This document shows positions 20,440-58,611 of a DNA stretch of 64,000 bases, piece by piece (the first letter of the stretch is position 1; every line of letters begins with the position of its first letter). The DNA is from an uncultured Muribaculaceae bacterium (lineage in GTDB: Bacteria; Bacillota_I; Bacilli_A; RF39; UBA660). Under the pieces are notes generated by a model. The model had not been told where the DNA came from. It did not search any database and saw nothing but the letters and a program-made list of their open reading frames with translations. Both the position numbers and the translations under genes were made by a program. Location of the stretch: contig CAZPLK010000001.1 of the NCBI GenBank assembly GCA_964587565.1, positions 120,088 to 184,087 on the forward strand, given 5' to 3'.

Positions 20440-20636
20440 AAAAAAAACAATGACGAAGAAATAGTAATAAATGTAATTATTTAAAGAGAGCTAGTGGCTG
20501 GTGTAAACTAGTAATAATTGTTTTATGAATTCACCTTCTAGTTTTTTCGGTAACGCGTTATAGTTTTGAGAGCATAAACACATGAATTAAGGTGGTACCG
20601 CGAGCATTCGTCCTTAAATATTAAGGACTTTTTTTA
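20440..20636 (+). promoter_or_regulatory. T-box leader (Phe specifier) controlling pheST
   Basis: Lies downstream of TGtTATAAT (20423-20431). AGAGAG bulge, GGUGUAA distal loop, UUC-A specifier (20530-20533), T-box AATTAAGGTGGTACCGCG (20586-20603). Terminator GTCCTTAA/TTAAGGAC plus T7 (20610-20635). Confidence 0.9.
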
Positions 20637-35727: not shown

Positions 35728-35829
35728 GAAAATAAGTGTTTAGACAGCTTTTTTTCTTTAATTTGTTAAACACTTGAAAAGATTATATATAAATAGTATA
35801 ATTAGAATATAATTATATAGGTGGTAAAT

Positions 35830-36246
35830 ATGTATTTGTTTTGGTTAATGCTGACAATATTTTTGATTTTTATTGAAATGATAACTATTAATTTAACTAC
35901 TATTTGGTTTATAGTAAGTTCTTTGGTTGTATTGTTTTTGTCATTTTTTATTGATAGTTTTACAATCCAAGTTGCGCTTTTTATAATATTAGGACTTATA
36001 TTATTAGTAAAAAGCAGACCAATACTTGTAAAATATCTAAACAAAAACAAAGAGAAAACTAATATTGATCGGATTATCGGTATGCGTGGTGTTGTTATAG
36101 ACGATATTTTATTAAAAAGTTATGGTTCTGTTAAAGTTGATGGAAAAATATGGACAGCTTATAGTGATAAAGAATTAAAAAAGGACACTTTTGTAAAAAT
36201 ACTTAAAATAAATGGAAACAAATTAGAAGTAGAGGAGGAAAATTGA
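35830..36246 (+). CDS. NfeD-family membrane protein
   Basis: Three TM helices followed by a C-terminal OB-like domain (GMRGVVIDD...VKVDGKIWTAYSD). Directly upstream of the SPFH gene. Confidence 0.8.
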   Translation: MYLFWLMLTIFLIFIEMITINLTTIWFIVSSLVVLFLSFFIDSFTIQVALFIILGLILLVKSRPILVKYLNKNKEKTNIDRIIGMRGVVIDDILLKSYGSVKVDGKIWTAYSDKELKKDTFVKILKINGNKLEVEEEN

Positions 36247-38346: not shown

Positions 38347-38365
38347 TATAAAAAGGAGAGATAAT

Positions 38366-41089: not shown

Positions 41090-41117
41090 AAAGTATATTT
41101 AAAATATACTTTTTTTG
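41088..41117 (+). terminator. Rho-independent terminator after ileS
   Basis: AAAGTATATTT / AAATATACTTT palindrome followed by a T run. Confidence 0.6.
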
Positions 41118-41155
41118 TCAAATTGTGTTATAATTTAATATATAGGAGTGACTTA

Positions 41156-42205
41156 ATGATGTGTAATAATAAAGGATTTACATTAATCGAATTATTAGCA
41201 GTAATAGTAATACTTGCAATCATCATGTTAATCACAACACCAACAGTATTAAATATAATAGAAAATGCAAGGGTCGAATCATTTAAAACATCCGTTTATG
41301 GAATAATAAACACTGTTGAACAAAGTTATGCCAAAGAAACTCTAACAAAATCTTTTCCAACGGTAGTAACATACATATATAAAAATGGGAAAGAGATATC
41401 TAGTAATAAAAAGGAGTTAAAATTTAAAGGCAAAAAACCTGAATCAGGAATGATTATAATAAATAATAATGGTGTAGTTTCATTAGCTTTATACAATAGA
41501 GTATATTGCGCAGTTAAAGATAGTACAACTAACGAGGTAGAGGTTGAAAAAACATCAAGTTCAGAGTGTGAGTTATCATATCCATGTGGGACTGATTTAT
41601 TTGATTTTCGGGATGGGGAATTATATAGAACACTAAAAATAGGAGATCAGTGTTGGATGGCCGAAGATTTAAGATATGATTGCTCCAAATCCGGGTATAA
41701 CAATATTGGTTCCGCAAATAGTTGGAGTGGAAGTAATAATTGTGGTGATGGCGAATATAATACAATTTTATACCAGTGGCCAGTTGCTATGGATGGAAGT
41801 ACAGAAGAGAGTTCACAGGGCTTATGTCCAAGTGGTTGGCATATACCTAGTGATGATGAGTGGAAAAAGTTGGAACAACATCTAGGTATGACAGTGGACG
41901 AAGTTAATAAACCAGATTGGAGAGGTAATGATCAAGGTGATCAATTAAAATCCCTTCAATATAATTGGTGTTTAGAAGCAAACAGTTGTGGCACTTCGGG
42001 ATTCGACGCTATGCCAGTGGGCGGAAGGCAAATAGATGGTAAGTTTTATAATGTAGATTCAACTAGTTATTGGTGGACATCCACCATTTCAGATACATCA
42101 GCCTGGGTAAGACGAATTAATAATATAAATACTAATATTTATAGAAACAATCCAACCCAATTGTATGGTAGAGGAGTGCGTTGCATTATAAATATAAATA
42201 ATTAA
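41156..42205 (+). CDS. Type IV pilin-like protein fused to a FISUMP (TIGR02145-like) lectin-fold domain
   Basis: Own TGtTATAAT promoter (41126-41134). Class III signal MMCNNKG|FTLIELLAVIVILAII with Glu at +5. C-terminal FRDGELYRTLKIGDQCWMAEDL...CPSGWHIPSDDEWKKL...YWWTST...GRGVRCI matches the Fibrobacter succinogenes major paralogous domain pattern. Confidence 0.75.
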   Translation: MMCNNKGFTLIELLAVIVILAIIMLITTPTVLNIIENARVESFKTSVYGIINTVEQSYAKETLTKSFPTVVTYIYKNGKEISSNKKELKFKGKKPESGMIIINNNGVVSLALYNRVYCAVKDSTTNEVEVEKTSSSECELSYPCGTDLFDFRDGELYRTLKIGDQCWMAEDLRYDCSKSGYNNIGSANSWSGSNNCGDGEYNTILYQWPVAMDGSTEESSQGLCPSGWHIPSDDEWKKLEQHLGMTVDEVNKPDWRGNDQGDQLKSLQYNWCLEANSCGTSGFDAMPVGGRQIDGKFYNVDSTSYWWTSTISDTSAWVRRINNINTNIYRNNPTQLYGRGVRCIININN

Positions 42206-42287
42206 ATGTTCCACATAATTACTTTTTGTAAATGTATAATAATAATTTATTGTGTTTAATGAAAAAAACTATATTTAATAATTACAA

Positions 42288-42326
42288 TAAACCAAGTGAA
42301 ATAATTTCATTTGGTTTATTTTTTTT
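42288..42326 (+). terminator. Rho-independent terminator
   Basis: AAACCAAGTGAAA / TTTCATTTGGTTT stem (one G-U pair) followed by aT9. Confidence 0.7.
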
Positions 42327-42424
42327 CAAACATTATTAATAATATGGTTTTTTATCAATATATTAAAAATTTATTTACATTTATTTTAATACGTAATTAC
42401 ATATAATCTAATAGGAGTGATTTT

Positions 42425-43123
42425 ATGATTTTAAAATTTTTAAAAAAATTGTTTAAAGATTTTTATTTATTAACAGCATCATATTCAAATAAGGTTTTTC
42501 CAGAACCACTACCTAGGGATGAGGAAGCAATATACATTAAAAAAGCTAAAGAAGGAGATATGAATGCAAGAAGTAAATTAATAGAACACAACTTGCGTTT
42601 AGTAGCACACATAGTTAAAAAATATGATTATAACAGAGATGAATTAGATGATTTGATAAGTATTGGTACAATCGGACTTATAAAAGGAATTGATAGTTAC
42701 TCAGAAAAACACGGTACTAGAATAACTACATATTGTGCCAGATGTATAGAAAATGAAATACTAATGCATTTTAGAGGTGATAAGAAAAACAACAGAAATA
42801 TGAGTATTAATGAATCAATCGGATATGACAAAGATGGAAATGAAATTACTTTTTTAGATATTTTAAAAACACCTAAACCAGATTATGCTCTAGAAATTCA
42901 TAAAAAAGATAATATACAATTATTAAAAAAATATTTTAATGTATTAACTGAACGTGAACAAGATATAGTAATAAAAAGATATGGTTTAAATAATACAAAA
43001 GAAATAACACAAAAAGATATAGCAGAAGAACTAGGAATATCAAGAAGTTATGTTTCTAGAATAGAAAAAAGAGCGCTAACTAAAATTTTAAGAGAATTTT
43101 TAAAAAATGATATGGATATATAA
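42425..43123 (+). CDS. sigK: Pro-sigma-K, uninterrupted
   Basis: The pro-sequence junction ...LLTA|SYSNKVFPEPLPRDEE parallels B. subtilis ...FLV|SYVKNNAFPQPLSSSEE. Also IEHNLRLVAHIVKKY, ISIGTIGLIKG and GISRSYVSRIEKRAL. Confidence 0.85.
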   Translation: MILKFLKKLFKDFYLLTASYSNKVFPEPLPRDEEAIYIKKAKEGDMNARSKLIEHNLRLVAHIVKKYDYNRDELDDLISIGTIGLIKGIDSYSEKHGTRITTYCARCIENEILMHFRGDKKNNRNMSINESIGYDKDGNEITFLDILKTPKPDYALEIHKKDNIQLLKKYFNVLTEREQDIVIKRYGLNNTKEITQKDIAEELGISRSYVSRIEKRALTKILREFLKNDMDI

Positions 43124-43185
43124 AAAATATATAATTCTTTTGTTTGGGTGTTAAAATAAAAAAGCTACAACTCAAATCTTAGTAC

Positions 43186-43214
43186 TTGACAATGTAAGAT
43201 ACTTGGGATACAAT
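43186..43214 (+). promoter_or_regulatory. SigmaA-type promoter of the padR operon
   Basis: TTGACA (43186-43191), 17-nt spacer, TACAAT (43209-43214). Confidence 0.6.
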
Positions 43215-43230
43215 TATATTGAGGTGAGTT

Positions 43231-43554
43231 ATGAATATACAATTTAAAAAAGGTGTATTAGAATTAATAGTGTTAGTATCAGTAAGTGAAAAGGATATGT
43301 ACGGCTATGAATTAATTGCACTCGTATCTGAAATAATAGATATAAACGAAGGAAGTATATATCCATTATTAAAAAGAATGACAAATGAAAAATATTTTGA
43401 TACTTATTTAGCAGAATCAAACGAGGGGCCACCTAGAAAGTATTATAAAATAACTAATCTTGGGAAAGAAAGAATGGTTGATTTAGTAGAAGCTTGGAAA
43501 ACATTTTCAACATCTGTTAATGCGTTTATAGAAGGGAGCAATATAAATGAATAA
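43231..43554 (+). CDS. PadR-family transcriptional regulator
   Basis: 107-aa winged helix. MYGYELI, GSIYPLLKRM and PRKYYKIT motifs. Confidence 0.85.
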   Translation: MNIQFKKGVLELIVLVSVSEKDMYGYELIALVSEIIDINEGSIYPLLKRMTNEKYFDTYLAESNEGPPRKYYKITNLGKERMVDLVEAWKTFSTSVNAFIEGSNINE

Positions 43555-44890
43555 AAAGCAATTTTTAAATATATTAAAAGAAAAATTATCAATCTTAAAT
43601 AAAGATGAAAAACAAGATATTATTAACGAATATAGTGACATAATCGATGAAAAAATTAAAAATGGAAAAAGTGTTAAAGAAGCTATAAATGATTTTGGAG
43701 ATATAGATGAATTAACAACAGAAATATTAAAAGCTTATAAAATAGATCCTAGTTATAATTCTTTCAAAAGTAAAGAAGAAATGGGTTTTTTTGAAGGTAT
43801 AGAAATAGCAATCAATGTTATTGCAACTAAAATGGCTGAAATAACCAAAAAAACAATTGAAAAAATTCAAAATTATGATAATGATATTACAATTGAAAAA
43901 GTATTTGAAATAATAATAAAATTTTTCATATTAATGATCATTATAATGATACTTAAAATACCTTTCCATATATTACAAGAAATAGGTATTGGGATTTTAC
44001 ATTTTGGAAATAATCCAATTTCACAAATGATTAAATTTTTATGGAAAACTTTTGTTTGGGCAATATACTTTATCTCTTGTTTTGTTTTATTATTTATATT
44101 TTTTAAAACTCAATTAGATAAATCAACTAATAATAACGAAGTGAAAATTCCAAAAGATTTAGAAATCAAAAAAAAAGAAAAAGAAAAACAACAACAAAAT
44201 AAAAAAGAATCATTTTTAAAAACAGTAGTAATCATATTTTTGACAGTACCAATAGTTTTAATAAATATACCCTTATATGTTGCACTATCTGTAATAATAT
44301 ACGCGTTAATTAAAGGCATTAGTATATATGGATTATTAATGGTATTTTTAGGCCTAATTATAATATTTAGTAATTTATATAATATGGTTATATCAATTTT
44401 CCACAATAAAAATAAAATATATTTGTTTCCCTATATAGTTGGAATGATATTAATTATAATTGGTAGTTTGTTCACATTTGAATATATAAATAAAATCACA
44501 TATTATGATAAATTGCCTGAAACAAACTTAACTATTGAAACGGATATATATAAAGATAAAATAAAAGGTAAATTAATAATTCAACATGATAACAGCAGAA
44601 CTACTTTAAAAGTTGATAATAGTATGAAGGATAATGAAATTAAAATAGTTACTAAATATTATGATGGCTATGTAGATTTTTCTAAAAATATATATTTTAA
44701 TGAAACTTCTAATATCGCGTATTTGAATTTTCATTATAAGGATACAAGCCCCAAATATAAAGATTTAATTCATGTAATAATTAATAACTTAAAAGATAAT
44801 AAAATATATAACTATTCTCAAATATATAAATTATTTGTTGAAGTACATGGTAATGATAATACATTAAAAAATGTAAAGGTGGATTGGTAA
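43547..44890 (+). CDS. DUF1700 (HAAS)-type membrane protein with an extended C-terminal extracytoplasmic domain
   Basis: N-terminal MNKKQFLNILKEKLSILNKDEKQDIINEYSDIIDEK matches the DUF1700 partner of PadR regulators. Several TM helices. Overlaps the padR stop. Confidence 0.7.
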   Translation: MNKKQFLNILKEKLSILNKDEKQDIINEYSDIIDEKIKNGKSVKEAINDFGDIDELTTEILKAYKIDPSYNSFKSKEEMGFFEGIEIAINVIATKMAEITKKTIEKIQNYDNDITIEKVFEIIIKFFILMIIIMILKIPFHILQEIGIGILHFGNNPISQMIKFLWKTFVWAIYFISCFVLLFIFFKTQLDKSTNNNEVKIPKDLEIKKKEKEKQQQNKKESFLKTVVIIFLTVPIVLINIPLYVALSVIIYALIKGISIYGLLMVFLGLIIIFSNLYNMVISIFHNKNKIYLFPYIVGMILIIIGSLFTFEYINKITYYDKLPETNLTIETDIYKDKIKGKLIIQHDNSRTTLKVDNSMKDNEIKIVTKYYDGYVDFSKNIYFNETSNIAYLNFHYKDTSPKYKDLIHVIINNLKDNKIYNYSQIYKLFVEVHGNDNTLKNVKVDW

Positions 44891-44955
44891 AACAATTCAC
44901 CTTTTTTAAAAGGAAAAACATATAAATTACCATATATTATTTATGAGGTGATTTT

Positions 44956-46482
44956 ATGAGAAGATTTTTAATGTTTATACTAATGATATTATTATTTAGA
45001 AATAATGTGAATGCAAAAGAAGAGGTGTATTATTCAGATTACAGTGATTTCGGAGAATATACTGAACAAAAAATATTGGGAAGTGATGTTATTGATGTTA
45101 AAGAAGTTTATAAATACAAGTATTATAAAGAAGTCAAAGAATTTGGCGATTATTATATAGAAGGGCATAACGAAGAACAATTTCCTTATATTGATAGAAG
45201 TGATTTTATAATTAGTGATTACACACCTTTTAGTGATGAAAAACCATTAGAAGAAAAGGGACGTGAGCTTAAAACAAGAAATGTTTATCATTATTCAAAT
45301 ATGAAAAAAATAAGATATATTCATTTAACAGACTTTTGGGGTACTCGTGATCAATTAAACATCAATGAAATTATTATAAGATCGAATAGTGAATATTTAC
45401 CATATAATTTATATTGCGAAGGATGCAGTGAAGGATTTTATGAAAAAGTTAGTAATAAAGAAGTCAAAACTGAAAATTCATATGTTTTACATGGTGGTTA
45501 CATTAGGATTGATTTAAGAAATTATTATGATTTATCTGATTTAGAAATTAGAATTTATATTACTGATTTAGGAACGAGTGAAAAAGGGTTTCAAATAAGC
45601 ACAAGTCGGGAACAAGATTTAAACCATAAAATTTTTAATACAATAAAGGAAAGGCAATTTTTCACTAATGAAAATATTTCCGATTTTAAAACTGTTGTTT
45701 ATAAACTTGATCAATTACAGTGGGTTGAACCAGAATGGGAAGAAACACTAAAAACTTACGACGAGATGCTTCCTTCAAGTACGAGAATGGTTGACAAAAA
45801 AGAAGAATATAGTTATAGAGATACTTACTATAAATATTATAATTTAAACAAAAAATATGCCGATGGTTATTATTTGGATTCGCCCATTGATTATCCTCTA
45901 AAAGATGTTGATTATAAAAAAACTTATTACCAATTCAGGGAAAGAGATAAAGTGGTAATTTCATCGTCAATTATTATAAGTGATAAAAACCAAAAATTGG
46001 AAGAGTTTATTATATCAAATTCAACAAATAAATATATAGTTAATAGTAATATAAACTATAATAAAAATGGTAAATATACTGCTTTATATGAATTCCCATT
46101 TATTACTGTAGAAAAGGAAATAATTGTCGATATTCCTAATAATCATAATGAAAACACCAAAAATATTAATACTAGTAAAGTTGTTAATCAAGAACTAAAA
46201 AATCTTAATAAAAATGAAGGAGGTAATCATACAAATAAAGTTAAATTACAAAATAAAGAAACCATCGATAATAATGAAATAAAAGTTAACATTCCAAGTA
46301 TTGAAAAAACAGATACAATAAACATAACAAAACCAATCGCTCAAACGAATGTAAAAGAACAATTAAAAATTGAAGATAAAGAAAAAGTAAATAAAAATTA
46401 TTTGTTAGTTCCATTGTCAATAATAATTATTATTACTGCAATACAAATAATAAAATTAAGCACAAATCAAAAAAAGTCGTAA
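44956..46482 (+). CDS. Secreted Tyr/Lys-rich surface protein with a C-terminal TM anchor, unknown family
   Basis: Signal peptide ending NVNA|KEE. C-terminal helix LLVPLSIIIIITAIQIIKL followed by a basic tail. Recurrent Y-x-Y-(K/R)-x-x-Y-Y-K motifs. Confidence 0.55.
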   Translation: MRRFLMFILMILLFRNNVNAKEEVYYSDYSDFGEYTEQKILGSDVIDVKEVYKYKYYKEVKEFGDYYIEGHNEEQFPYIDRSDFIISDYTPFSDEKPLEEKGRELKTRNVYHYSNMKKIRYIHLTDFWGTRDQLNINEIIIRSNSEYLPYNLYCEGCSEGFYEKVSNKEVKTENSYVLHGGYIRIDLRNYYDLSDLEIRIYITDLGTSEKGFQISTSREQDLNHKIFNTIKERQFFTNENISDFKTVVYKLDQLQWVEPEWEETLKTYDEMLPSSTRMVDKKEEYSYRDTYYKYYNLNKKYADGYYLDSPIDYPLKDVDYKKTYYQFRERDKVVISSSIIISDKNQKLEEFIISNSTNKYIVNSNINYNKNGKYTALYEFPFITVEKEIIVDIPNNHNENTKNINTSKVVNQELKNLNKNEGGNHTNKVKLQNKETIDNNEIKVNIPSIEKTDTINITKPIAQTNVKEQLKIEDKEKVNKNYLLVPLSIIIIITAIQIIKLSTNQKKS

Positions 46483-46497
46483 TAAATATAATTCTAG

Positions 46498-46528
46498 TTT
46501 TGTCGAAATTGTATAAGATTAATATGAT
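46498..46528 (+). promoter_or_regulatory. Candidate Spo0A box and promoter of the spoIIA-like operon
   Basis: TGTCGAA (46501-46507) sits within TTTTGTCGAAA, the same 11-mer found at 27558-27568. TTGTCG, 17-nt spacer, TATGAT (46523-46528). Confidence 0.45.
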
Positions 46529-46556
46529 GTGTGCTAAATTATTGTAACGAGGTGAT

Positions 46557-46952
46557 ATTATTTTAAATATTAGCACTGAATGCCATAAAGGCGTGTTTTT
46601 TGTAAGACTAATTGGTCAATTAACTAAAGATACTGTTACTAAACTAAATGATGAAGTTACAATGTTAGTTTTAGATAATGGTATTAAAAATGTAGTTTTT
46701 AACATCGAAAAATTAAAAGTAATTGATATGATTGGAATAAATGCATTATTGTATAATTATGAAATAATAAAAAACAATAAAGGATATGGTTGTTTGTGTG
46801 GGTTAGAAAATAATTTAGTAAGACAAAGAATAGAAAATAGCAGGTTATTAAAATATATGTATGAAACGAGCGATGAAATTGGTGCTTTAAATATAATTAA
46901 TTTACATAAGGAGCAAAGTTATGACAGAAAATATAACAGCAATAATCGATGA
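46557..46952 (+). CDS. spoIIAA: SpoIIAA-like STAS protein (anti-sigma-F antagonist homologue) lacking the phospho-serine
   Basis: Aligns by eye with B. subtilis SpoIIAA (VFFVRLIGQLTKDTVTKLNDEV vs [22 protein letters not shown]). The frame is open from 46548. The GAGGTGAT SD (46549-46556) suggests a non-ATG start (ATT 46557/46560); the track start GTG 46593 would truncate beta-1. Confidence 0.65.
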   Translation: MILNISTECHKGVFFVRLIGQLTKDTVTKLNDEVTMLVLDNGIKNVVFNIEKLKVIDMIGINALLYNYEIIKNNKGYGCLCGLENNLVRQRIENSRLLKYMYETSDEIGALNIINLHKEQSYDRKYNSNNR

Positions 46953-47589
46953 AAATAAAAATTTAATATACTCAATATCTCATTATTTTAAAAATTACCC
47001 TAATAAAGAAGACTTGTTTCAAGTAGGATGTATAGGGGTAATTAATGCATATAAAAATTTTAACAATAATTTAGGTGTTAAATTTACGACTTATGCATAT
47101 CCTTATATATTAGGTGAAATGAAAAGATATGTAAACTATGATCGTGGTATAAAAATTAGTAGAAAAATATTATCATTAAACTTGAGAATAGAAAAAGCAA
47201 AAGCATTATTAACACAAAAGCTTATGAGAGAGCCTACAATAGAAGAAGTTGCGAATTTTTTAAATGTTTCAGAAGATTTGATTATTCAATCATTAAATAG
47301 CATTTTAACTATAAATAGCTTTGATGAACCGATTACTGCTAGTGATGGTAAAGATTTAAATTTATATGATGTTGTAAGTTCGATTGATAATTTGGATTAT
47401 GATAGTTTAATAATGCTGAAAAAGGAACTAAACAAATTAAATGAATGTGACAAAAACATTATAAAAATGCGTTATTTTGATGATTTAACTCAAACTGAAA
47501 CAGCAAATATACTTGGAATAAATCAAGTTCAAGTTTCAAGAAAAGAACAAAAAATCTTACAAAAGTTAAGAACAGAACTTATTAATTAA
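46921..47589 (+). CDS. sigF: Sporulation sigma factor of the SigF/SigG family (SigF by synteny)
   Basis: DLFQVGCIGVINAYKNF, FTTYAYPYILGEMKRY and GINQVQVSRKEQKIL compare with B. subtilis DLFQIGCIGLLKS / GISQVQVSRLEKKIL. It lies between spoIIAA and spoVA. Confidence 0.8.
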   Translation: MTENITAIIDENKNLIYSISHYFKNYPNKEDLFQVGCIGVINAYKNFNNNLGVKFTTYAYPYILGEMKRYVNYDRGIKISRKILSLNLRIEKAKALLTQKLMREPTIEEVANFLNVSEDLIIQSLNSILTINSFDEPITASDGKDLNLYDVVSSIDNLDYDSLIMLKKELNKLNECDKNIIKMRYFDDLTQTETANILGINQVQVSRKEQKILQKLRTELIN

Positions 47590-47613
47590 AACTACTTATT
47601 AAAGTAGTTTTTT
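47589..47613 (+). terminator. Rho-independent terminator after sigF
   Basis: AAACTACTT-atta-AAGTAGTTT followed by TTT. Confidence 0.65.
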
Positions 47614-47642
47614 GTATATTAAAAATTATATATTACATAATA
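47614..47642 (+). promoter_or_regulatory. SigmaG/F-type forespore promoter of the spoVA operon
   Basis: GTATA (47614-47618), 17-nt spacer, CATAATA (47636-47642). This fits the sigmaG consensus GHATR-N17/18-CATxHTA. Confidence 0.55.
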
Positions 47643-47658
47643 ATATTGGAGGTAATTT

Positions 47659-48099
47659 ATGGAGAAAAAACAGTATAAACAAATAGTCGATAACAATACA
47701 CCAATGGAAAACAGACTATATAATGGAATGGTAGCTTTTATTGTCGGTGGTTTTATGGGAGCGATAGGGGAATTATTAATCCAGATTTATTCTTATTTTT
47801 TTAACATATCCAGTTCCGAAGCTTCTGTGTTAATGATTATGACACTTATATTTTTAGGATGCTTGTTTACTGCTTTAGGTTTTTTTGATAATTTAGTTAA
47901 TTTCGCCAAAGCAGGATTAATTATACCGATAACAGGTTTCGCCCATGCTACTATGAGTGCAGCGTTAGAACATAGGGAAGAAGGGTTAGTTACTGGAGTA
48001 GGTGCTAATATATTTAAATTATCTGGTACTGTAATTGTGTTTGGTATTGTTAGTGCTTATATTGTAGGACTAATTAGATTAATGTTTTTAGGAGGATAA
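47659..48099 (+). CDS. spoVAC: Stage V sporulation protein AC
   Basis: 146 aa, 4 TM helices, conserved PITGFAHA and GANIFKL motifs. Confidence 0.85.
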   Translation: MEKKQYKQIVDNNTPMENRLYNGMVAFIVGGFMGAIGELLIQIYSYFFNISSSEASVLMIMTLIFLGCLFTALGFFDNLVNFAKAGLIIPITGFAHATMSAALEHREEGLVTGVGANIFKLSGTVIVFGIVSAYIVGLIRLMFLGG

Positions 48100-48100
48100 T

Positions 48101-49087
48101 ATGACTTTTACATATAAAAATGTATATATAAATGATGTTAGTACAATTGTAGGCCCTTATGAAAAAAAAGGACCAATTGGAAATTTATTTGATAAATATT
48201 ACGATGATTTGTATTTTGGTGAAAAAACATGGGAACAAGCAGAAGTGAAATTAATTGTTGAAAGTGTTGAATTATTATTAAAAAAATTAAATAAAAATAA
48301 ACTAGATATTGATGTACATTTGTCTGGTGATTTGTTAAATCAAATTGTAGCAACAAATTATGCCTCGGCAAAATTAGGTATTCCATTACTAGGGCTTTAT
48401 AGTGCTTGTGCAACTAGTGTTGAGGCTCTTATTATAGGAGCAAATATGATTGAATCAAGCCAAATTAATAATTGTATTTGTAGTGTTTCTTCTCATAATA
48501 ATGCAGCGGAAAAACAATTTAGATATCCTATTGAATATGGTGGTCCTAAACCAAAAACAGCAACTTTTACAACAACTGGTTGTGCTAGTGCATATTTAAG
48601 TAAACAACTAAAAGGTATAAAAATAGAAAGTGGCACGATTGGTACTGTTAGTGAGTTAGGTATTACTGATCCTTATCATATGGGTGCTATTATGGCTTCA
48701 TCAGCAGGTGATACAATAAATAAGCATTTAAATGATTTAAATAGAACCTTTGATTATTACGATTTAATTATTACAGGAGATTTAGGAAAGTATGGTTCAA
48801 AAATTTTAATAGATTATATGAAAACGAAATACGGTATTAATTTAACTAATCATCAAGATGCTGGTGTTATGATATACGATTTAAAAACACAACCCGTTTA
48901 CTCTGGTGGAAGTGGGACAGCGTGTGCCCCGTTAGTAACATATACACATGTTTTTAAACTAATGCAAAAAAAGGAAATCAAAAAAGTATTATTAGTTGCA
49001 ACAGGTGCATTACTATCATCGACAATGGCTTTACAAAAACTTGGAATACCATCAATATCACACGCAATTAGTTTGGAGGTATTGTAA
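48101..49087 (+). CDS. spoVAD: Stage V sporulation protein AD (thiolase-like fold)
   Basis: 328 aa. YFGEKTWEQAE, GLYSACATS and SGGSGTACAP motifs typical of SpoVAD. Confidence 0.85.
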   Translation: MTFTYKNVYINDVSTIVGPYEKKGPIGNLFDKYYDDLYFGEKTWEQAEVKLIVESVELLLKKLNKNKLDIDVHLSGDLLNQIVATNYASAKLGIPLLGLYSACATSVEALIIGANMIESSQINNCICSVSSHNNAAEKQFRYPIEYGGPKPKTATFTTTGCASAYLSKQLKGIKIESGTIGTVSELGITDPYHMGAIMASSAGDTINKHLNDLNRTFDYYDLIITGDLGKYGSKILIDYMKTKYGINLTNHQDAGVMIYDLKTQPVYSGGSGTACAPLVTYTHVFKLMQKKEIKKVLLVATGALLSSTMALQKLGIPSISHAISLEVL

Positions 49088-49437
49088 TGATATACATAAA
49101 TGCATTTATATTTTGTGGAACAATTTGTTTAATTGGACAAATAATTTTAGACAACACTAAATTAACACCAGGCCACGTTACTGCTATTTTAGTTACAATT
49201 GGTACCTTTCTTGATTTATTCCACATATACGATCGCTTTGTATTGTGGGCAGGTGGTGGGGCATTAGTACCAATAACTAGTTTTGGTCATTTATTAATTC
49301 ATGGAGCACTAGCTAAAGCTAGCAACCTTGGACCGATGGGGTTAGTAATGGGGATGTTTGATTTAACAGCCGCTGGAATTGTTTCAGTAATCTTTTTCTC
49401 TTTTATATTAGCTTTAATATTTAAACCTAAAGATTAA
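49087..49437 (+). CDS. spoVAEb: Stage V sporulation protein AE(b)
   Basis: 116 aa, 3-4 TM helices, GGGALVPITSFGH motif. ATGA-type coupling to spoVAD. Confidence 0.8.
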   Translation: MIYINAFIFCGTICLIGQIILDNTKLTPGHVTAILVTIGTFLDLFHIYDRFVLWAGGGALVPITSFGHLLIHGALAKASNLGPMGLVMGMFDLTAAGIVSVIFFSFILALIFKPKD

Positions 49438-49479
49438 AAATGTAAATATGCTTTAAAAATGATTTTAAATGGTGATAAT

Positions 49480-52344
49480 ATGAAGAAAAATAATAAAAAA
49501 GCATTTACATTAGTAGAGTTATTAGCAGTAATATTTATTATTGGCATTTTATCTGTAATTACTATACCTACCATTAACAAATTAACTTTGCAAAGTAAAG
49601 AACAATTATATAAAAATCAAATAGATAACATAAAACATGGTGCTAAAAACTGGGCTGCTAGTAATTTTTACATGTTGCCAGAAAGTGAAGGAGAACAAAT
49701 TACACTTACATTAGGACAGTTACAAATAGGAGGATTTGTTGCATCTGATATTAAAGATCCGAGAAATAAAAAACCATTTCCAAGAGATATGGAAATAATA
49801 ATCAAAAGAATTATGAATAGTTATCGCTATGAAGTAATAGAAGGTAGTGGTGGTGAAAATGGTAACTTAGATTTTGATTCTCCAACTATAATTTTAAATG
49901 GTTCAGCTCATGAAATTGTGGAAATTAATACAAATTATGTTGAAAAAGGTGCACTAGCAAAAGATCCAAGTGGTAGTCTAATAGATGATATTAATATTTT
50001 AATTCAATCTAACAATAAAGAAGTAGATAAAGTAGATACTAGTAAATTAGTACAATATAAAATAACTTATAGTGCTGTTTATAATAATAATACGGCAACT
50101 GCAATAAGAACAGTTACTATTAAAGATACAATACCCCCGAATTTAAATGTACCTGGTAATATAATAATATCATCCGATGAGGTATTAAATTACGATTTTA
50201 TGGAAGGGGTTAGTGCAACAGATAACTCTCTTGAAAATGTAAATATTACAATAAAAGGAACAGTAAGTGTACTTCCAGGAAAGTACTTGCTAACTTATAT
50301 TGCGACAGATTCATCTTCCAATAAAACAGAAAAAACAAGGCACATTACAGTAGTAAGTGCTACATATCCAACAATATCAATAATAGGTAGTAGTATAGTA
50401 AATATAAATGTGGAAGAACCATATAAAGACATGGGAGCAACTGCTAGTGATTTATTAGATGGTGATTTAACTAATAAAATTATTGTTAGTGGTACAGTTA
50501 ATGTTAATATACCTGGAAATTATAATATTACTTATGAAGTTACTAATAGCATAGGTAAAACTACAACTGTAATAAGGGAAGTAAAAGTAATTGATAATAT
50601 ACCACCTGTTATAGTTTTTGGGACAAATGGAAACAGTACTTATGCAAGAAATTATAATACCAAAATAACAGTAAATGATATACATTCATTGGTAAATAAA
50701 AATTCACTAAAATATTTATGGTCAACAACTACTACAACTCCTAGTGAAAGTTCTTTTACTAATAAATTCACAAGTGGTGATATAATATCAACGCCAAATG
50801 ATTTAAGTGGTAGTTATTATTTATGGATAATAGCAAAAGACACCGTTGGGAATACTGCAATTAAAAGAACAAATGCATTTAACTTGGATAATACTAATCC
50901 TAGTGTTACAAACATAGTTAGTAATGTAACAAATATAACAGAAACAGGTTTTACTATAACAAGAAGCGGAAATGCAACTGATGCCCATAGTGGATTAGCT
51001 AGCATTCCATATATGTATCAAATAAGTACAAACAATGTAAGTTGGATTACAAATTGTACTAGTAGTGCTACAACTTGTGTTGTAACTGGGTTAGACCTTG
51101 AAACAAAATACTATTATAGAATATGTGCATCGGATAAAGTTGGTAATCAATCGTGTGTAGCAAGTAAAAACACTACAACCGAAGGCGGTGATTATAGTAT
51201 TGTTAAAAACGTTAACAGACCAGTATTGTTGCCAGGTATGACGCCAATTAAATGGAATGGTATGACAGAGGTGATTACTACTACAAATGATACATCTTGG
51301 TATGATTATACTAATAAAATGTGGGCTAATGCAAAAACAAAAGACGGATCTTATTGGGTGTGGGTACCAAGATATGCATATCAAATTTCAAGTGGTTATC
51401 ATACTAAAAGTGCTGGTAATATAAATATAAAATTTTTACAAGGTAATACTAATGTTGCATCTGATAATACAACAGTGGCAACAACCCCTACTTATAGTGG
51501 TTCTAGGCAAACTAATTATATAAGACATCCCGCTTTCCAATTTGGAACAGAAGAAATCCTAGGATTTTGGGTAGCAAAATTCGAACCAAGTGGTACTTTA
51601 AGCAATATAAATATTTTACCAAACGCATCAACATTAACAAATATAAATGTTAAAGATATGTTTAATGCAAGTTTAAATATGAAATCCAATTCAAAGTATG
51701 GTTGGGGTACCAATACTGTTGATACCCACATGGCTAAAAATACAGAATGGGGAGCAATAGCTTATTTAAGTAAATCCATATATGGGGCGAATAGTGAAGT
51801 GTGGATTAATAATAGTAACAATTATACGACTGGTTGTGCTGGAAGTAGTATATCAGCTAGTAGTTATTCTGGTTGTCAAAACGCTTATAATACAACAATT
51901 GGTGTTAGAGCTAGTACAACACATAATATATATGGTGTGTACGATATGAGTGGTGGCGCGAATGAATATGTAACAGGAAATTTAAATCGTACAACAGCAA
52001 GTAGTGGTTTTTCTATAACTGAACTTAGAGGAATAGATTCAAAGTATATTGATGTATATAGTGGTTATAATAGTACGATATTTGGTGATGCTATTTATGA
52101 AACGAGTTTAACTCAAAAAATGAGTGATTTTGGCAATGCTAACAAATTAAATGAATCATGGCACAATCAGAGATCAACTTTAATCGGTACTTATAGTATA
52201 GCTGGAAGAAGTATATCAGCACCATGGTATATTAGAGGTGATGATTATGCGGGGAGAGAATTAGCAGGATTATTTTCATTTAGACCCGATGCTGGAAATG
52301 CTTCATCAAGTTATTCTTTTAGACCAATAGCAATACCTCAATAA
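49480..52344 (+). CDS. 954-aa modular type IV pilin-like protein (pilin module, 3 Ig-like DUF5011-type repeats, Fn3-like domain, FGE/SUMF1-like lectin-fold domain)
   Basis: ATG 49480 follows a GGTGA SD. Class III signal MKKNNKKA|FTLVELLAVIFIIGIL. Repeats of the P.I.L.G....pY.d.Ga.A.D..dG.l...I...G.V....pG.Y.itY...D..gN pattern, DxHSGL Fn3-like segment. The C-terminus has GFWVAKFEPS...NTEWGAIAYL...GVYDMSGGANEYV...WYIRGDD...SFRP. Confidence 0.7.
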   Translation: MKKNNKKAFTLVELLAVIFIIGILSVITIPTINKLTLQSKEQLYKNQIDNIKHGAKNWAASNFYMLPESEGEQITLTLGQLQIGGFVASDIKDPRNKKPFPRDMEIIIKRIMNSYRYEVIEGSGGENGNLDFDSPTIILNGSAHEIVEINTNYVEKGALAKDPSGSLIDDINILIQSNNKEVDKVDTSKLVQYKITYSAVYNNNTATAIRTVTIKDTIPPNLNVPGNIIISSDEVLNYDFMEGVSATDNSLENVNITIKGTVSVLPGKYLLTYIATDSSSNKTEKTRHITVVSATYPTISIIGSSIVNINVEEPYKDMGATASDLLDGDLTNKIIVSGTVNVNIPGNYNITYEVTNSIGKTTTVIREVKVIDNIPPVIVFGTNGNSTYARNYNTKITVNDIHSLVNKNSLKYLWSTTTTTPSESSFTNKFTSGDIISTPNDLSGSYYLWIIAKDTVGNTAIKRTNAFNLDNTNPSVTNIVSNVTNITETGFTITRSGNATDAHSGLASIPYMYQISTNNVSWITNCTSSATTCVVTGLDLETKYYYRICASDKVGNQSCVASKNTTTEGGDYSIVKNVNRPVLLPGMTPIKWNGMTEVITTTNDTSWYDYTNKMWANAKTKDGSYWVWVPRYAYQISSGYHTKSAGNINIKFLQGNTNVASDNTTVATTPTYSGSRQTNYIRHPAFQFGTEEILGFWVAKFEPSGTLSNINILPNASTLTNINVKDMFNASLNMKSNSKYGWGTNTVDTHMAKNTEWGAIAYLSKSIYGANSEVWINNSNNYTTGCAGSSISASSYSGCQNAYNTTIGVRASTTHNIYGVYDMSGGANEYVTGNLNRTTASSGFSITELRGIDSKYIDVYSGYNSTIFGDAIYETSLTQKMSDFGNANKLNESWHNQRSTLIGTYSIAGRSISAPWYIRGDDYAGRELAGLFSFRPDAGNASSSYSFRPIAIPQ

Positions 52345-52374
52345 GAACAAATAACATTTATTTGTTCTTTTATT
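52344..52374 (+). terminator. Rho-independent terminator after the 954-aa pilin-like gene
   Basis: AGAACAAATAA-cat-TTATTTGTTCT perfect 11-bp stem followed by a T run. Confidence 0.75.
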
Positions 52375-52417
52375 ATATATTCCAACAATTAGTCCATAAT
52401 AAAAAAGAGGTAATATT

Positions 52418-54082
52418 ATGATTCAAAATAAAAACAAAGGTTTTACATTGATCGAATTATTAAGTGTAATTGTAGTTTTTGTTATTATAATGCTTATAGT
52501 AAGTCCAGTAGTTATAAACATAATAAAAAGTGCTAATAAAGGTGCTTTTAAAAACAGTGTTAACGGGATAGTGAAAAGTGCTATATTAGAACAATCTAAA
52601 AATGTATTAACCGGTAAAGAAGTGAATGAACTTATTTTTACATATGAAAACGGTGTTGAAAAATCAAATATTATTGGGGCAAAACTTAATTATAAAGGTA
52701 AAAGTCCAAGTGAAGGTGTTATTATTGTCAATAAAAAAGGACAAGTTTCACTTGCTCTTTTCGATTCAATGTGTGCTATTAAATCATTCGAAGGCAATGT
52801 GGAAATTAAACCAAATAGTAAAGAAGATTGTCAATTAAAATTATTAATACCTACTATTGAATTAATTGGAAATAATACAATAGATATAGAAATAAATACT
52901 AAATATGAAGAACTAGGTGTAATTGCAAAAAAATATAACGGAGATGTTATTAAAAATGTTGATATTAAAATTAAATATAATGGCATAATACAAAAAACTG
53001 TTGATACTAGTAAATTAGGAACATATGAATTAATATATTCAGTACAAGAAGATAATCAAAGGGTAGAGATATTAAGAATTATACATATTGTAGATACAAT
53101 CCCTCCTGTTTTAAACATTCCAAAAGATATAGTTATTGACATCAAAAATTTTAATGATTTTGATTTTATGGATGGTGTTAGTGCCACGGATAATAGCAAT
53201 GAAAAAATTAATATAATTACAACTAGTAACATTGTTCCAATACCAGGTAATTATTATATTAAATATGAAGCATTTGATTCATCAGGGAACAAAACGGAAA
53301 AGATAAGGCAAATTAACATAATAGATACAACACCACCTAATATAAATAAATTAGTTATATCAACTAAAAATGTAACATCTAATTCATTTGTCATTATAAT
53401 GGAAGGAGAAGTTTTTGACGAACACAGTGACTTAGCACAAAAACCATTTATTTATCAAACAAGTACTGATAACGTTAATTGGCAAACAAAATGTACAACA
53501 AGTAATAAAGATTGTTTAGTTGAAAATTTAAATAATAACACAACATATTATTACCGTTTATGTGTCATAGATATATATGATAATAAAGCGTGTTCTAATA
53601 ATAAAAGTATAACAACTAGTAATCCGCTTTATTACTACGATAAATATAGGGTAGGTATTAATTACTATAATTACCGAAATCCTTCATCAAATTTTTCTTA
53701 TAGTTATACAACATCTGAAAAATCATTATCAAGTGGTAGTACCATATCAATTGCAGGTACAACGAGTTATGGTTTTAATAGTACATCTGGTTTTTATGGT
53801 ACTGGCTCATCTGTAACATTGACTCAATCAACAATTTCAAACGGATATACTAGATACTATGCAAGCGGAAGTTCAATTTCACAACATAAAATAGTTAATA
53901 AAAGAACATCAGGCTCAACAGTATATTGGAAAGAAGAAGTTTATGTTATGAGTTGTCAATATGATACAAGTTATACGAGAGGAGCGTTTATAGAAACTGT
54001 GACAGCTATTACTGGTCAGTATCCTAATAACGGTAGACATACAGATGGTTATTGGTATGTCAGAAGAGAATTGGTTAGTTAA
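52418..54082 (+). CDS. 554-aa modular type IV pilin-like protein (pilin module, 2 Ig-like repeats, Fn3-like domain, Tyr/Ser/Gly-rich C-terminal domain)
   Basis: Class III signal MIQNKNKG|FTLIELLSVIVVFVII. The pilin module is paralogous to 41156-42205 (LNYKGKSPSEGVIIVNKKGQVSLALF vs LKFKGKKPESGMIIINNNGVVSLALY). The Ig/Fn3 part is paralogous to 49480-52344 (DFMDGVSATDNS / DFMEGVSATDNS). Confidence 0.7.
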   Translation: MIQNKNKGFTLIELLSVIVVFVIIMLIVSPVVINIIKSANKGAFKNSVNGIVKSAILEQSKNVLTGKEVNELIFTYENGVEKSNIIGAKLNYKGKSPSEGVIIVNKKGQVSLALFDSMCAIKSFEGNVEIKPNSKEDCQLKLLIPTIELIGNNTIDIEINTKYEELGVIAKKYNGDVIKNVDIKIKYNGIIQKTVDTSKLGTYELIYSVQEDNQRVEILRIIHIVDTIPPVLNIPKDIVIDIKNFNDFDFMDGVSATDNSNEKINIITTSNIVPIPGNYYIKYEAFDSSGNKTEKIRQINIIDTTPPNINKLVISTKNVTSNSFVIIMEGEVFDEHSDLAQKPFIYQTSTDNVNWQTKCTTSNKDCLVENLNNNTTYYYRLCVIDIYDNKACSNNKSITTSNPLYYYDKYRVGINYYNYRNPSSNFSYSYTTSEKSLSSGSTISIAGTTSYGFNSTSGFYGTGSSVTLTQSTISNGYTRYYASGSSISQHKIVNKRTSGSTVYWKEEVYVMSCQYDTSYTRGAFIETVTAITGQYPNNGRHTDGYWYVRRELVS

Positions 54083-54104
54083 AAGGGCGTTATACCCCTT
54101 TTTC
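54081..54104 (+). terminator. Rho-independent terminator
   Basis: AAAAGGG-cgttatac-CCCTTTT followed by TC. Confidence 0.55.
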
Positions 54105-58143: not shown

Positions 58144-58194
58144 AGTAGTTGTCAAATAATTTAAATAATAGTATAATGAATTTGGGTGATTTGT

Positions 58195-58611
58195 ATGATG
58201 TATATTTGGCTTGCAATAGTTATTTTATTAATAGTTGTTGAAATAATGACTGTTGATTTAACTACTATTTGGTTTGTTACAAGTGCCTTAATTTCATTAA
58301 TTTTAACTTTTTTCATAAAAAGTTTTGCCATTCAAGTAATTGTTTTTCTAATACTTGGTGTTATACTTTTAATAACGACACGTTCAACTTTAGTAAAATT
58401 AATTACTAATATTAGGCATAAAAAAGATGTGAACTATTTAGTTGGTATGCGTGGGCAAGTTATTTCTTTAGTTAGTCAAGATCAAATTGGTGAAGTAAAA
58501 ATAGATGGAAAAATTTGGTTGGCTTATGCTGATGAATTAATTGATATAAACACTTATGTAACAGTAGTTGAAATAAATGAAAATAAAATTAAAGTTTCGA
58601 AAGATGATTAA
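58195..58611 (+). CDS. NfeD-family membrane protein, orphan paralogue
   Basis: Clear paralogue of 35830-36246 (VDLTTIWFVTSALISL / INLTTIWFIVSSLVVL; GMRGQVIS...VKIDGKIWLAYAD). No SPFH gene is adjacent. Confidence 0.75.
   Translation: MMYIWLAIVILLIVVEIMTVDLTTIWFVTSALISLILTFFIKSFAIQVIVFLILGVILLITTRSTLVKLITNIRHKKDVNYLVGMRGQVISLVSQDQIGEVKIDGKIWLAYADELIDINTYVTVVEINENKIKVSKDD

Follow-up and report, generated by a model that had tools for sequence, protein, structure and literature searches.

Three modular pilin-like genes near sporulation loci of an uncultured low-GC bacterium: probable minor pilins with an adhesive role on a filament whose genes lie elsewhere

Three large open reading frames (ORFs) on the plus strand of the window, the whole 64-kb stretch of DNA analysed here, begin like prepilins and continue into large additional modules (P1, 41156-42205, 349 aa; P2, 49480-52344, 954 aa; P3, 52418-54082, 554 aa), and their position among housekeeping and sporulation genes raises the question of what such proteins might do. 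The initial annotation offered two answers, an unrecognised surface- or spore-display system or tip adhesins of a pilus encoded elsewhere. The second is the best-supported reading, resting on the invariant Gly-1, Phe1 and Glu5, the pilin fold of P1, a disulfide and the recombination of modules. It is likely, with a probability of about 0.7, that the three proteins are modular minor pilins with an adhesive role, serving a filament whose genes lie elsewhere, and that they belong to a dispersed, recombining family of paralogues.

The class III signal, described at the outset as textbook in all three ORFs, was borne out by a motif scan and profile models. A short basic leader ending in Gly or Ala precedes F-T-L-[IV]-E, in which Glu stands at +5, and about 20 hydrophobic residues come next, the N-termini (a slash marks the expected cleavage site) being MMCNNKG/FTLIELLAVIVILAIIMLITTP in P1, MKKNNKKA/FTLVELLAVIFIIGILSVITIP in P2 and MIQNKNKG/FTLIELLSVIVVFVIIMLIVSP in P3. 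A six-frame scan of the 64 kb returned three such motifs, those of P1, P2 and P3 only, versus 0.04 expected in shuffled sequences. The Pfam model N_methyl (PF07963) scored 33.9, 26.3 and 29.0 bits for P1, P2 and P3, respectively, against a gathering score of 21.2, and all three proteins exceeded the cut-off of TIGR02532. At the DNA level, a 105-nt repeat family with 63-72% identity spans the three N-termini, and the G+C content of the three genes is that of their surroundings. The residue at -1 of P2 is Ala and not Gly, which was counted against the preferred explanation.

P1 is the simplest of the three, and its gene and flanking elements are as follows.

41090..41116, plus strand: terminator-like AT-rich hairpin with a T-run, 3' of the ileS stop, read from the sequence
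41126..41134, plus strand: candidate promoter-like element of the extended -10 type, TGTTATAAT, ahead of P1, predicted from the sequence
41144-41148, plus strand: AGGAG ribosome-binding site ahead of P1, from the sequence
41156..42205, plus strand: P1 gene, modular pilin of 349 aa with pilin module and FISUMP head (ORF, Pfam, TIGR02145, AlphaFold2)
41156..41575, plus strand: P1 pilin module, aa 1-140, with leader MMCNNKG, mature F1 to E5, alpha-1 helix and beta-sheet
41597..42190, plus strand: FISUMP (Fib_succ_major) head of P1, aa 148-345 (scores exceed the PF09603 and TIGR02145 cut-offs)
42286..42320, plus strand: intrinsic terminator downstream of P1, with 16-bp stem and T-run

The protein is identical to the NCBI-called P0001, whose start is placed at 41159. 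Its AlphaFold2 model (pLDDT 91.3, pTM 0.79) has the lollipop pilin fold, with a helix at residues 10-64 (55 residues) packed on five to six strands at 71-132, followed by the FISUMP domain, which is joined directly to the pilin module with no stalk. The head is a full FISUMP domain above the curated cut-offs, matching PF09603 over profile positions 2-186 of 187 (E 5.7e-33, 115.2 bits versus 33.9) and TIGR02145 with 111.7 bits versus 41.65. The pilin module carries the pair Cys118/Cys138, and in an alignment of 14 pilin modules (A1, including P3) the two Cys are invariant together with Gly-1, Phe1, Thr2, Leu3, Ile, Glu5 and Pro22; a conserved disulfide pair is a property of the pilin module of the P1/P3 type. 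The Phe, Thr, Leu and Glu are also invariant across 44 pilin-FISUMP proteins. In type IV pilins, Glu5 is required for filament assembly and not for membrane anchoring, so its conservation here argues for polymerisation. Judging from the DNA, P1 would be an insulated unit with its own predicted housekeeping-type extended -10 element and terminators on both sides, the upstream hairpin being unscored by the terminator scanner, which requires G+C.

P3 combines a paralogous pilin module with a stalk and a different head.

52418..54082, plus strand: P3 gene, modular pilin of 554 aa (ORF; N_methyl 29.0 bits; two PF16403 stretches)
52418..52837, plus strand: pilin module of P3, aa 1-140, paralogous to that of P1 (member of alignment A1)
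52850..53617, plus strand: P3 stalk of two DUF5011 Ig-like domains and one FN3-like domain, boundaries approximate
53618..54079, plus strand: P3 C-terminal head, aa 401-554, rich in Tyr, Ser and Thr
54081..54102, plus strand: terminator-like hairpin downstream of P3

The pilin modules of P1 and P3 share 45% identity over 137 aa (E 1e-28), and because of this identity to the modelled P1 the pilin fold was assigned to P3 as well. The P3 protein is also encoded on a Logan contig from SRR8925797, where it likewise adjoins the end of P2. A Pfam search gave no match for the P3 head and no lectin assignment; the head matches phrog_21129 (E 1.7e-11) and is 39% identical to gp424 of Bacillus phage G over 97 aa.

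P2, the largest protein, has an N-domain of another type and the longest stalk.

49480..52344, plus strand: P2 gene, modular pilin-like, 954 aa (ORF; N_methyl 26.3 bits; three PF16403 stretches, E 5e-37)
49480..49854, plus strand: P2 pilin-like N-domain, aa 1-125, of a type unlike the P1/P3 module
49873..51195, plus strand: P2 stalk, in which three DUF5011/Bact_surface_Ig-like domains are followed by one Big_3_4-like and one FN3-like domain, with approximate boundaries
51202..52341, plus strand: P2 head, aa ~575-954, distantly FGE-sulfatase-like, of a family without its own Pfam model
52345..52376, plus strand: AT-rich hairpin GAACAAATA-ACATT-TATTTGTTC with a T-rich tail 3' of P2, weakly terminator-like, from the sequence

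The best NCBIfam matches of the N-domain were ComGC and GspG, far under cut-off, and a phmmer search of the PDB matched the N-termini of geopilin, PilA and MshA. Stand-alone relatives of this domain, 118-145 aa long, occur at three related loci (L008, L213 and L212). Within the head, PF03781 (FGE-sulfatase) was matched over 66 residues only, with E 0.005 and 17.0 bits versus a cut-off of 23.3, and membership of the FGE-sulfatase/SUMF1-like family by the Pfam criterion was rejected on this score. The same model was matched at E<=0.01 by 12 of 76 members of the P2-head family (best E 5.9e-6), which suggests that the head is a distant relative of FGE-sulfatase outside the Pfam family. The PDB structure 5vf4_A gave a weak profile match. 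The AlphaFold2 model of the head is poor (pLDDT 44.6), and the family holds 5973 cluster representatives at E<=1e-3.

The heads had been called lectin-type from the outset, which survives in part. For P1 the FISUMP assignment stands and the top Foldseek matches of the model are C-type-lectin-like snaclecs from snake venom, at a non-significant E of ~0.2; the P2 head is weakly FGE-like, and the P3 head has no lectin assignment. The weak similarity behind a lectin-like nature of the heads was counted against the preferred explanation. Module shuffling is well documented. The stalks of P2 and P3 are paralogous (29-34% identity, E 7e-41 and 1e-32), residues 1-291 of P2 are 58% identical to P0024, which joins a P2-type N-domain and Ig domains to a FISUMP head, and in relatives one and the same pilin module bears FISUMP, a P2-type head, LRR_5, DUF285, propeller-like repeats or Gly-rich tails. 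FISUMP has been reported as a DGR target (PMC11661182). P1, P2 and P3 were rejected as DGR variable proteins, as 40-58 kb shows no TR/VR pair, its direct repeats being confined to the shared pilin N-termini and one Ig-domain segment, and no reverse transcriptase occurs among the ORFs of the window.

The relatives that carry such genes are uncultured Bacilli and 'Tenericutes' metagenome-assembled genomes (MAGs), in which related pilin genes sit singly amid housekeeping genes at sites that vary between genomes. The orphan placement and the shuffling noted in the initial annotation are both real, but they are lineage-wide habits and not peculiar to this locus; placement far from pilus machinery is typical of this uncultured, spore-forming low-GC Bacilli lineage.

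Modular architectures of this kind have precedent, and for the comparison we take IPR011871 to be TIGR02145/FISUMP and IPR032179 to be PF16403. Modular pilins were defined, and adhesion by PilB demonstrated, by Raynaud et al. 2021 (PMC8179133), and P1 (FISUMP), P2 (three PF16403 stretches, FN3-like, FGE-like) and P3 (two PF16403 stretches, FN3-like, unassigned head) are modular pilins in that sense. Dataset S1 of the same study already catalogues the pilin-FISUMP and pilin-FGE-sulfatase architectures, listing 40 proteins with IPR012902-IPR011871, 8 with IPR012902-IPR005532 (IPR005532 being FGE-sulfatase, PMC13358676) and 3+1 with IPR012902-IPR032179. These are the combinations of P1, of P2 and of the Ig-bearing P2 and P3, given as counts with none characterised, and the P2 head itself lies under the Pfam threshold.

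The comparison with PilB and PilC of Streptococcus sanguinis, made in the initial annotation, proved apt; these are minor pilins whose heads are a vWA domain in PilB and a concanavalin-A-like lectin in PilC (PMC8179133; Shahin et al. 2023, PMC9934059). Common to both sets of proteins are a monoderm host, a canonical class III signal that includes Glu5, a bulky binding module that a short linker connects to a small pilin module, and a predicted role as adhesive minor pilin on a type IV pilus. In contrast to PilB and PilC, encoded inside the pil operon, P1-P3 are scattered among housekeeping genes, their heads differ (FISUMP, FGE-sulfatase-like and unassigned), and P2 and P3 add Ig/FN3 stalks. 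The large minor pilins of the type of CofB of ETEC and TcpB of Vibrio cholerae, thought to be tip-located, also place extra beta-rich domains behind a pilin module (PMC8179133), but they are type IVb pilins of diderm hosts, with genes inside the pilus operon and extra domains unrelated to those of P1-P3. PilW of Clostridioides difficile (PDB 7t31, 8dx4), a Firmicute type IV minor pilin, was a weak Foldseek match of the P1 model, though non-significant (E 0.4-1, TM ~0.16), and carries no grafted head. ComGC-GG and the T2SS pseudopilin GspG share the short leader, the motif of Gly or Ala followed by FTLxE and the hydrophobic helix, and are the best NCBIfam equivalog matches, but at 26-30 bits versus cut-offs of 70-89 and over the N-terminal 30-60 residues only; the globular parts are unrelated and P1-P3 have no comGA/GB neighbours. 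Assignment as Com pilins (NF040999 ComGC, NF040982 ComGD, NF041013 ComGE) was likewise rejected, with 21-29 bits versus 49-75 and no comG neighbours.

As minor pilins, P1-P3 would enter the membrane via the hydrophobic alpha-1N segment, and a prepilin peptidase encoded elsewhere would cut after Gly/Ala(-1) and methylate Phe1. The Glu5-bearing helix would then allow the proteins to be built in at low abundance, most likely at or near the tip, by a T4P or Com-like filament machinery also encoded elsewhere, and adhesion of the filament would come from ligand binding by the FISUMP, FGE-like and P3 heads, with glycans or other surface polymers as the probable targets. The long Ig/FN3 stalks of P2 and P3, not obviously needed by a tip-located pilin, were counted against this explanation.

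As had been claimed, the window itself encodes neither a small pilin nor any pilus machinery (ATPase, platform protein or prepilin peptidase), according to ORF and Pfam review, a scan for Walker-A and PilD motifs and phmmer searches of nine queries (ATPase, platform and peptidase proteins) against all ORFs. The 47 related loci (687 kb in total) were likewise free of peptidase, assembly ATPase and platform protein, with no machinery within 10 kb, and searching metagenomes with an AT-biased Walker-A scan yielded nothing from the lineage of these genes. The lack of peptidase, ATPase and platform in the window and the 47 loci was also counted against the preferred explanation. Given one machinery locus per ~1.5 Mb genome, only about 0.5 encounters are expected in the 687-kb sample, so the null result in the 47 loci indicates that the machinery is unlinked, not that it is absent. 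Pilins of 115-150 aa are present in the lineage (L011, L012, L023, L068 and L212) and could be major subunits.

A display that is independent of any filament is quite unlikely, although the stalks lend it some appeal. The prepilin peptidase would cleave the N-terminus, which would serve mainly as a membrane anchor or very short pseudopilus stub, and the Ig/FN3 stalks would carry the heads across the cell wall, as in the archaeal bindosome. In that system, large sugar-binding proteins of Sulfolobus carry class III signal peptides, a pilin-type N-terminus put to another use, and their genes lie apart from those for assembly. The bindosome is archaeal with another machinery and would serve as an analogy only. 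The stalks of P2 and P3, with three to five Ig/FN3 domains, are typical of Gram-positive wall-spanning adhesins, the lineage has many such genes per genome with none linked to machinery, and many proteins with the P2-type head begin with a G-I-S-L-I-V-type N-terminus that lacks Glu5. On the other hand, all P1/P3-type modules and pilin-FISUMP proteins compared have Glu5, the whole globular pilin domain is kept together with its disulfide, and P1 has no stalk.

The neighbourhood might seem to point to the spore. Profile matches confirmed the neighbours named in the initial annotation, namely IleS (TIGR00392, 993 bits), SigK (NF004471, 296 bits), PadR with a HAAS-domain protein, a STAS protein with a SigF-like sigma factor, SpoVAC/SpoVAD/SpoVAEB and PFOR; the surface protein among them is a 508-aa signal/TM protein with no family match. 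One promoter-like element lies in front of the spoVA genes.

47614..47642, plus strand: forespore-type (sigmaG/F-like) motif GTATA-17-CATAATA upstream of spoVAC (motif match)

The P2 start lies 42 nt past the spoVAEb stop, and the gap contains neither a terminator nor a recognisable P2 promoter, an arrangement that was counted against the preferred explanation. P2 may be read through from, or co-transcribed with, the spoVA operon, with the motif ahead of spoVAC as a possible source. One reading would have P2, and perhaps P3, share a forespore transcript with spoVAC/D/Eb and work inside the spore, on its surface or during germination. Such a function is very unlikely. The motif occurs four times on the plus strand versus ~1.9 expected, about 2-fold over chance, and is suggestive only as a forespore promoter; P1 is insulated behind its predicted housekeeping-type element. 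Some relatives' pilin genes do lie beside spoIIP (L084) or near spoIID (L085), but P2-type heads and N-domains in relatives follow pheT, gpsA, rnfD or Band7/Rce1, and the comparison of genomes proposed in the initial annotation found spoVA or ileS-sigK beside the pilin genes in none of ~47 related loci. A conserved linkage with sporulation genes was therefore rejected, since insertion sites differ between genomes. Four sporulation loci occur within the 64 kb (yabP/yqfD, sigK, spoIIAA-sigF and spoVA), and because such genes are dense throughout these small genomes, their adjacency to pilin genes is expected by chance. The nearness of P1-P3 to sigK and spoVA looks coincidental, and the proposed surface- or spore-display system finds no support in a neighbourhood that is not conserved.

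Least probable of all are ordinary signal-anchored adhesins whose peptidase and machinery were lost or never present, the pilin N-terminus persisting as an uncleaved, vestigial anchor. No machinery was seen in the window or the 47 loci, but Gly-1, Phe1 and Glu5 are strictly conserved in hundreds of homologues from several MAG lineages, which would hardly be expected unless the proteins were processed and assembled, and the comG operon is reported to be vertically inherited in Erysipelotrichales, another order of class Bacilli (PMC12786226).

Beyond the reading of P1-P3 as minor pilins, the lineage might use the pilin module as an all-purpose carrier for a large adhesin repertoire, with many pilin genes per genome, each inserted singly amid housekeeping genes, and with gain, loss, splitting and head-swapping between close relatives, the machinery being fully unlinked or even dispensable, as in a bacterial counterpart of the bindosome, and some copies (P2) expressed from sporulation operons, a broader view that we regard as unlikely. 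Modular pilins are thought to account for the functional versatility of simple type IV filaments, and few have been studied, chiefly PilB and PilC of S. sanguinis. In this lineage, at least seven head types occur on a single conserved pilin carrier, including the large P2-head family (~6000 cluster representatives and no Pfam model), and reasoning from gene neighbourhood, with no pil operon near and sporulation genes near, is misleading. The chromosome-wide dispersal of these genes would make the lineage a natural system in which to study how module swapping drives the evolution of adhesin repertoires in Firmicutes of the gut and the environment.

Exactly three class III motif sites were located in the 64 kb by a six-frame scan, compared with 0.04 expected from shuffles, and they open three large ORFs (P1, P2 and P3), as the initial annotation had claimed. 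Each signal is followed by ~20 hydrophobic residues, all three proteins score above the cut-offs of both Pfam N_methyl (gathering score) and TIGR02532, and their N-termini form a 105-nt repeat family at the DNA level. The neighbours attributed to them (IleS, SigK, PadR, STAS-SigF-like, SpoVA and PFOR) were recovered as well.

Modular pilin-like genes and their neighbours in the window
41156-42205, + strand: P1, 349 aa, N-terminus MMCNNKG/FTLIELL...
49480-52344, + strand: P2, 954 aa, N-terminus MKKNNKKA/FTLVELL...
52418-54082, + strand: P3, 554 aa, N-terminus MIQNKNKG/FTLIELL...
Neighbour: IleS, with a T-box leader 5' of the gene
Neighbour: SigK
Neighbours: PadR and a HAAS-domain membrane protein
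Neighbour: 508-aa signal/TM protein without a family match
Neighbours: STAS protein and SigF-like sigma factor
Neighbours: SpoVAC, SpoVAD and SpoVAEB
Neighbour: PFOR

P1 consists of a ~140-aa pilin module and, after a linker of 4 residues, a FISUMP/Fib_succ_major domain (E 5.7e-33). The AlphaFold2 model built with 44 homologues (pLDDT 91.3, pTM 0.79) predicted a helix at residues 10-64 that packs on a beta-sheet, the lollipop fold of pilins, with the head after it. Foldseek comparison of the two-domain model with the PDB gave zero matches at E<=0.001, and the weak, non-significant ones were to snake-venom proteins of the C-type-lectin-like kind and to PilW, a minor pilin of C. difficile. P1 homologues number thousands, the pilin-FISUMP architecture being common in MAGs labelled Bacilli bacterium. 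FISUMP domains are reported targets of diversity-generating retroelements (DGRs) (PMC11661182), in keeping with a lectin-like fold that binds ligands. A direct-repeat search detected no DGR features in the window, and DGR diversification of its lectin-fold heads was rejected.

The pilin module of P3, 45% identical to that of P1, leads into a pair of DUF5011 Ig domains, then an FN3-like domain, and lastly a C-terminal 154-aa Tyr/Ser/Thr-rich head (53618-54079; ends ...GRHTDGYWYVRRELVS). This head matched only phrog_21129 (E 1.7e-11) and gp424 of Bacillus phage G (39% identity), and the domain is common to P3 and this giant-phage protein. P3 was found only on a 2.9-kb contig in the Logan contig search.

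P2 starts with a pilin-like N-domain of another type than the P1/P3 module, with Ala at -1, whose homologue search returned 8 matches, two of them in contexts with further orphan pilins. Three DUF5011 domains, a Big_3_4-like and an FN3-like domain precede a 380-aa head, and the stalks of P2 and P3 are paralogous (29-34% identity). The head reached no more than 17 bits on FGE-sulfatase but is predicted to be a distant FGE-like domain, because 12 of 76 members of its family match PF03781 (best E 5.9e-6); its AlphaFold2 model, based on 9 sequences, was unusable (pLDDT 44.6). The head family (window:51202-52341, P0239-P0387) comprises 5973 cluster representatives at E<=1e-3 without a Pfam model, and is of some interest. 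Some giant proteins in this family hold five head copies, such as P0239 (4340 aa), and many members have G-I-S-L-I-V-L-type hydrophobic N-termini that are class III-like but devoid of Glu5.

In relatives, the same P1/P3-type pilin module, with invariant G-1, F1, T2, L3, E5, P22 and two Cys, was found fused to P2-type, LRR_5, DUF285 and cadherin-like heads, propeller-like repeats and Gly-rich tails. The homologous protein P0024 shares 58% identity with P2 across the N-domain and two Ig domains but terminates in a FISUMP head. The proposed shuffling of paralogous modules is thus real, judging from one carrier with many heads and from this hybrid.

In two relatives (L089:10001-11626 and L091:10001-11635), a 145-150 aa pilin is immediately followed by a separate ORF for a P2-type FGE-like head, with a stop codon in the pilin-head linker and an intact paralogue at L091:11714-13363. 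Sequencing error does not account for the split, since the same short pilin occurs on 14 contigs from different samples, and the pairs could be pseudogenes or split genes. P0127 and P0126, considered as stand-alone major pilins, were rejected as such, being the first halves of split pilin-plus-head genes.

A pilus ATPase, platform protein, prepilin peptidase or small pilin was not encountered in the window by ORF/Pfam review, Walker-A and PilD motif scans or phmmer with nine machinery queries, in agreement with the initial annotation. The search of the 47 lineage loci listed (687 kb), by the same motif scans, Pfam tables for 10 loci and phmmer with 9 queries, likewise yielded no GspE/PilB/ComGA ATPase, PilC/ComGB platform or PilD/ComC peptidase. 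Because only ~0.5 chance encounters are expected in 687 kb, given one machinery locus per ~1.5-Mb genome, this result shows that the pilin genes are unlinked from the machinery and does not mean that the machinery is missing. An AT-codon-biased Walker-A DNA pattern run against metagenome contigs gave no match of this lineage among the matches listed, which were ABC transporters and unrelated T4P, T2SS and Com loci. Three points indirectly support machinery encoded elsewhere: cleavage site and Glu5 are strictly conserved, the lineage has small pilins (115-150 aa), and vertical inheritance of comG operons is reported for Erysipelotrichales, a further order within class Bacilli (PMC12786226).

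The sporulation neighbourhood, to which meaning had been attached, is not conserved, since spoVA or ileS-sigK lies beside pilin genes in none of the related pilin loci listed. At least ~45 pilin loci were among the matches listed from species-representative genomes (gut and groundwater MAGs of uncultured Bacilli, 'Tenericutes' and Mollicutes), in a scan biased to genes with exact KGFTLIELL or AVIVIL peptide patterns. In these loci and ten annotated contexts, the genes lie singly or in short tandems amid housekeeping genes.

Related insertion sites
NfeD-Band7-Rce1-[pilin]-hydrolase-murF-ddl
rnfC-rnfD-[pilin][pilin]
tig-spoIIP-[pilin]-priA
Zip-gpsA-[pilin]-dinB-tex
pheST-[pilin]
[pilin][pilin]-prfB-ftsEX
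gap-[pilin]-pgk
four pilin-FISUMP genes in tandem

At several of these sites (after Zip, after pheT and before prfB) the window is syntenic but empty. Sporulation loci are dense in these small genomes, with four in the window and spoIID, spoIIP, spoIIGA-sigE-sigG and spoIIIAH in relatives' loci. The gap-pgk slot holds a small pilin of 125-130 aa in each of two different MAGs (L023:4270-4662 and L068:4234-4611), and two more pilin genes come ~5 kb downstream, past tpiA and a response regulator gene. Orphan pilin positions are conserved within this glycolysis cluster.

P1 appears to be an insulated transcription unit, as it is preceded by an AT-rich hairpin after ileS and by its own extended -10 element (TGTTATAAT) and AGGAG site before the ATG, and is followed by a terminator with a 16-bp stem. 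P2 starts 42 nt 3' of spoVAEb with neither a terminator nor a clear promoter in between, and a forespore-type motif (GTATA-17-CATAATA, window:47614-47642) lies just 5' of spoVAC, so P2 may be read through from a sporulation promoter; this motif is only ~2-fold over chance in AT-rich DNA. Between P2 and P3 lies a weak hairpin of AT-rich sequence, and P3 has a terminator after it.

The window is a low-G+C (0.23-0.31) chromosomal segment of a spore-forming Firmicute with almost all genes on the + strand. A horizontally acquired island was rejected, because G+C over the P1-P3 bins (0.27-0.31) is near that of adjacent bins (0.23-0.31) and the flanks keep their synteny with relatives. The 508-aa protein (window:44956-46482), placed between the PadR/HAAS and STAS-sigF pairs, carries a signal peptide at its N-terminus, a TM segment at its C-terminus and a tail rich in Lys and Asn, with zero matches in Pfam, NCBIfam and PHROG. 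The SpoIIAA-like STAS gene overlaps the start of the SigF-like gene (window:46593-47589) with no SpoIIAB anti-sigma kinase between, departing from the canonical spoIIAA-spoIIAB-sigF operon, and both proteins fall below equivalog cut-offs. T-box leaders were detected at window:38140-38329 (108 bits, 5' of ileS) and 20441-20618 (106 bits, 5' of pheS); mechanical listing starts ileS at a GTG (38300) inside the leader, the likely true start being the ATG at 38363. Rearrangement between two NfeD regions is suggested, since the related locus L002 has a single NfeD-Band7-Rce1 block directly 5' of its pilin gene and of the hydrolase-murF-ddl block, whereas the window has two NfeD-family paralogues (35821-36246, paired with a Band7/SPFH gene, and 58186-58611), with hydrolase-murF-ddl after the second.

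The best explanation, held at a probability of roughly 0.7, is that P1-P3 would serve as adhesive minor pilins of a filament encoded elsewhere. The earlier interpretation is partly supported: of its two options, adhesins of such a pilus are favoured, and the spore- or surface-display system finds no support in the comparative data. Membership of the Com pilus or T2SS pseudopilins was rejected, as P1-P3 score under the equivalog cut-offs. We take IPR011871 to be TIGR02145/FISUMP, and IPR032179 is presumably PF16403. More than 1200 modular type IV pilins with 264 architectures have been counted (Raynaud et al. 2021, PMC8179133), IPR012902-IPR011871 being the fifth most common (40 proteins) in Dataset S1, which also has IPR012902-IPR005532 (8 proteins) and IPR012902-IPR032179; IPR005532 is FGE-sulfatase (PMC13358676). 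Adhesion by S. sanguinis PilB proceeds through a grafted vWA module (PMC8179133). By the definition of Raynaud et al. 2021, P1, P2 and P3 are modular type IV pilins and add to this already catalogued kind, with mild interest at the lineage level in the one carrier with many heads, the dispersed and variable insertion sites and the split copies.
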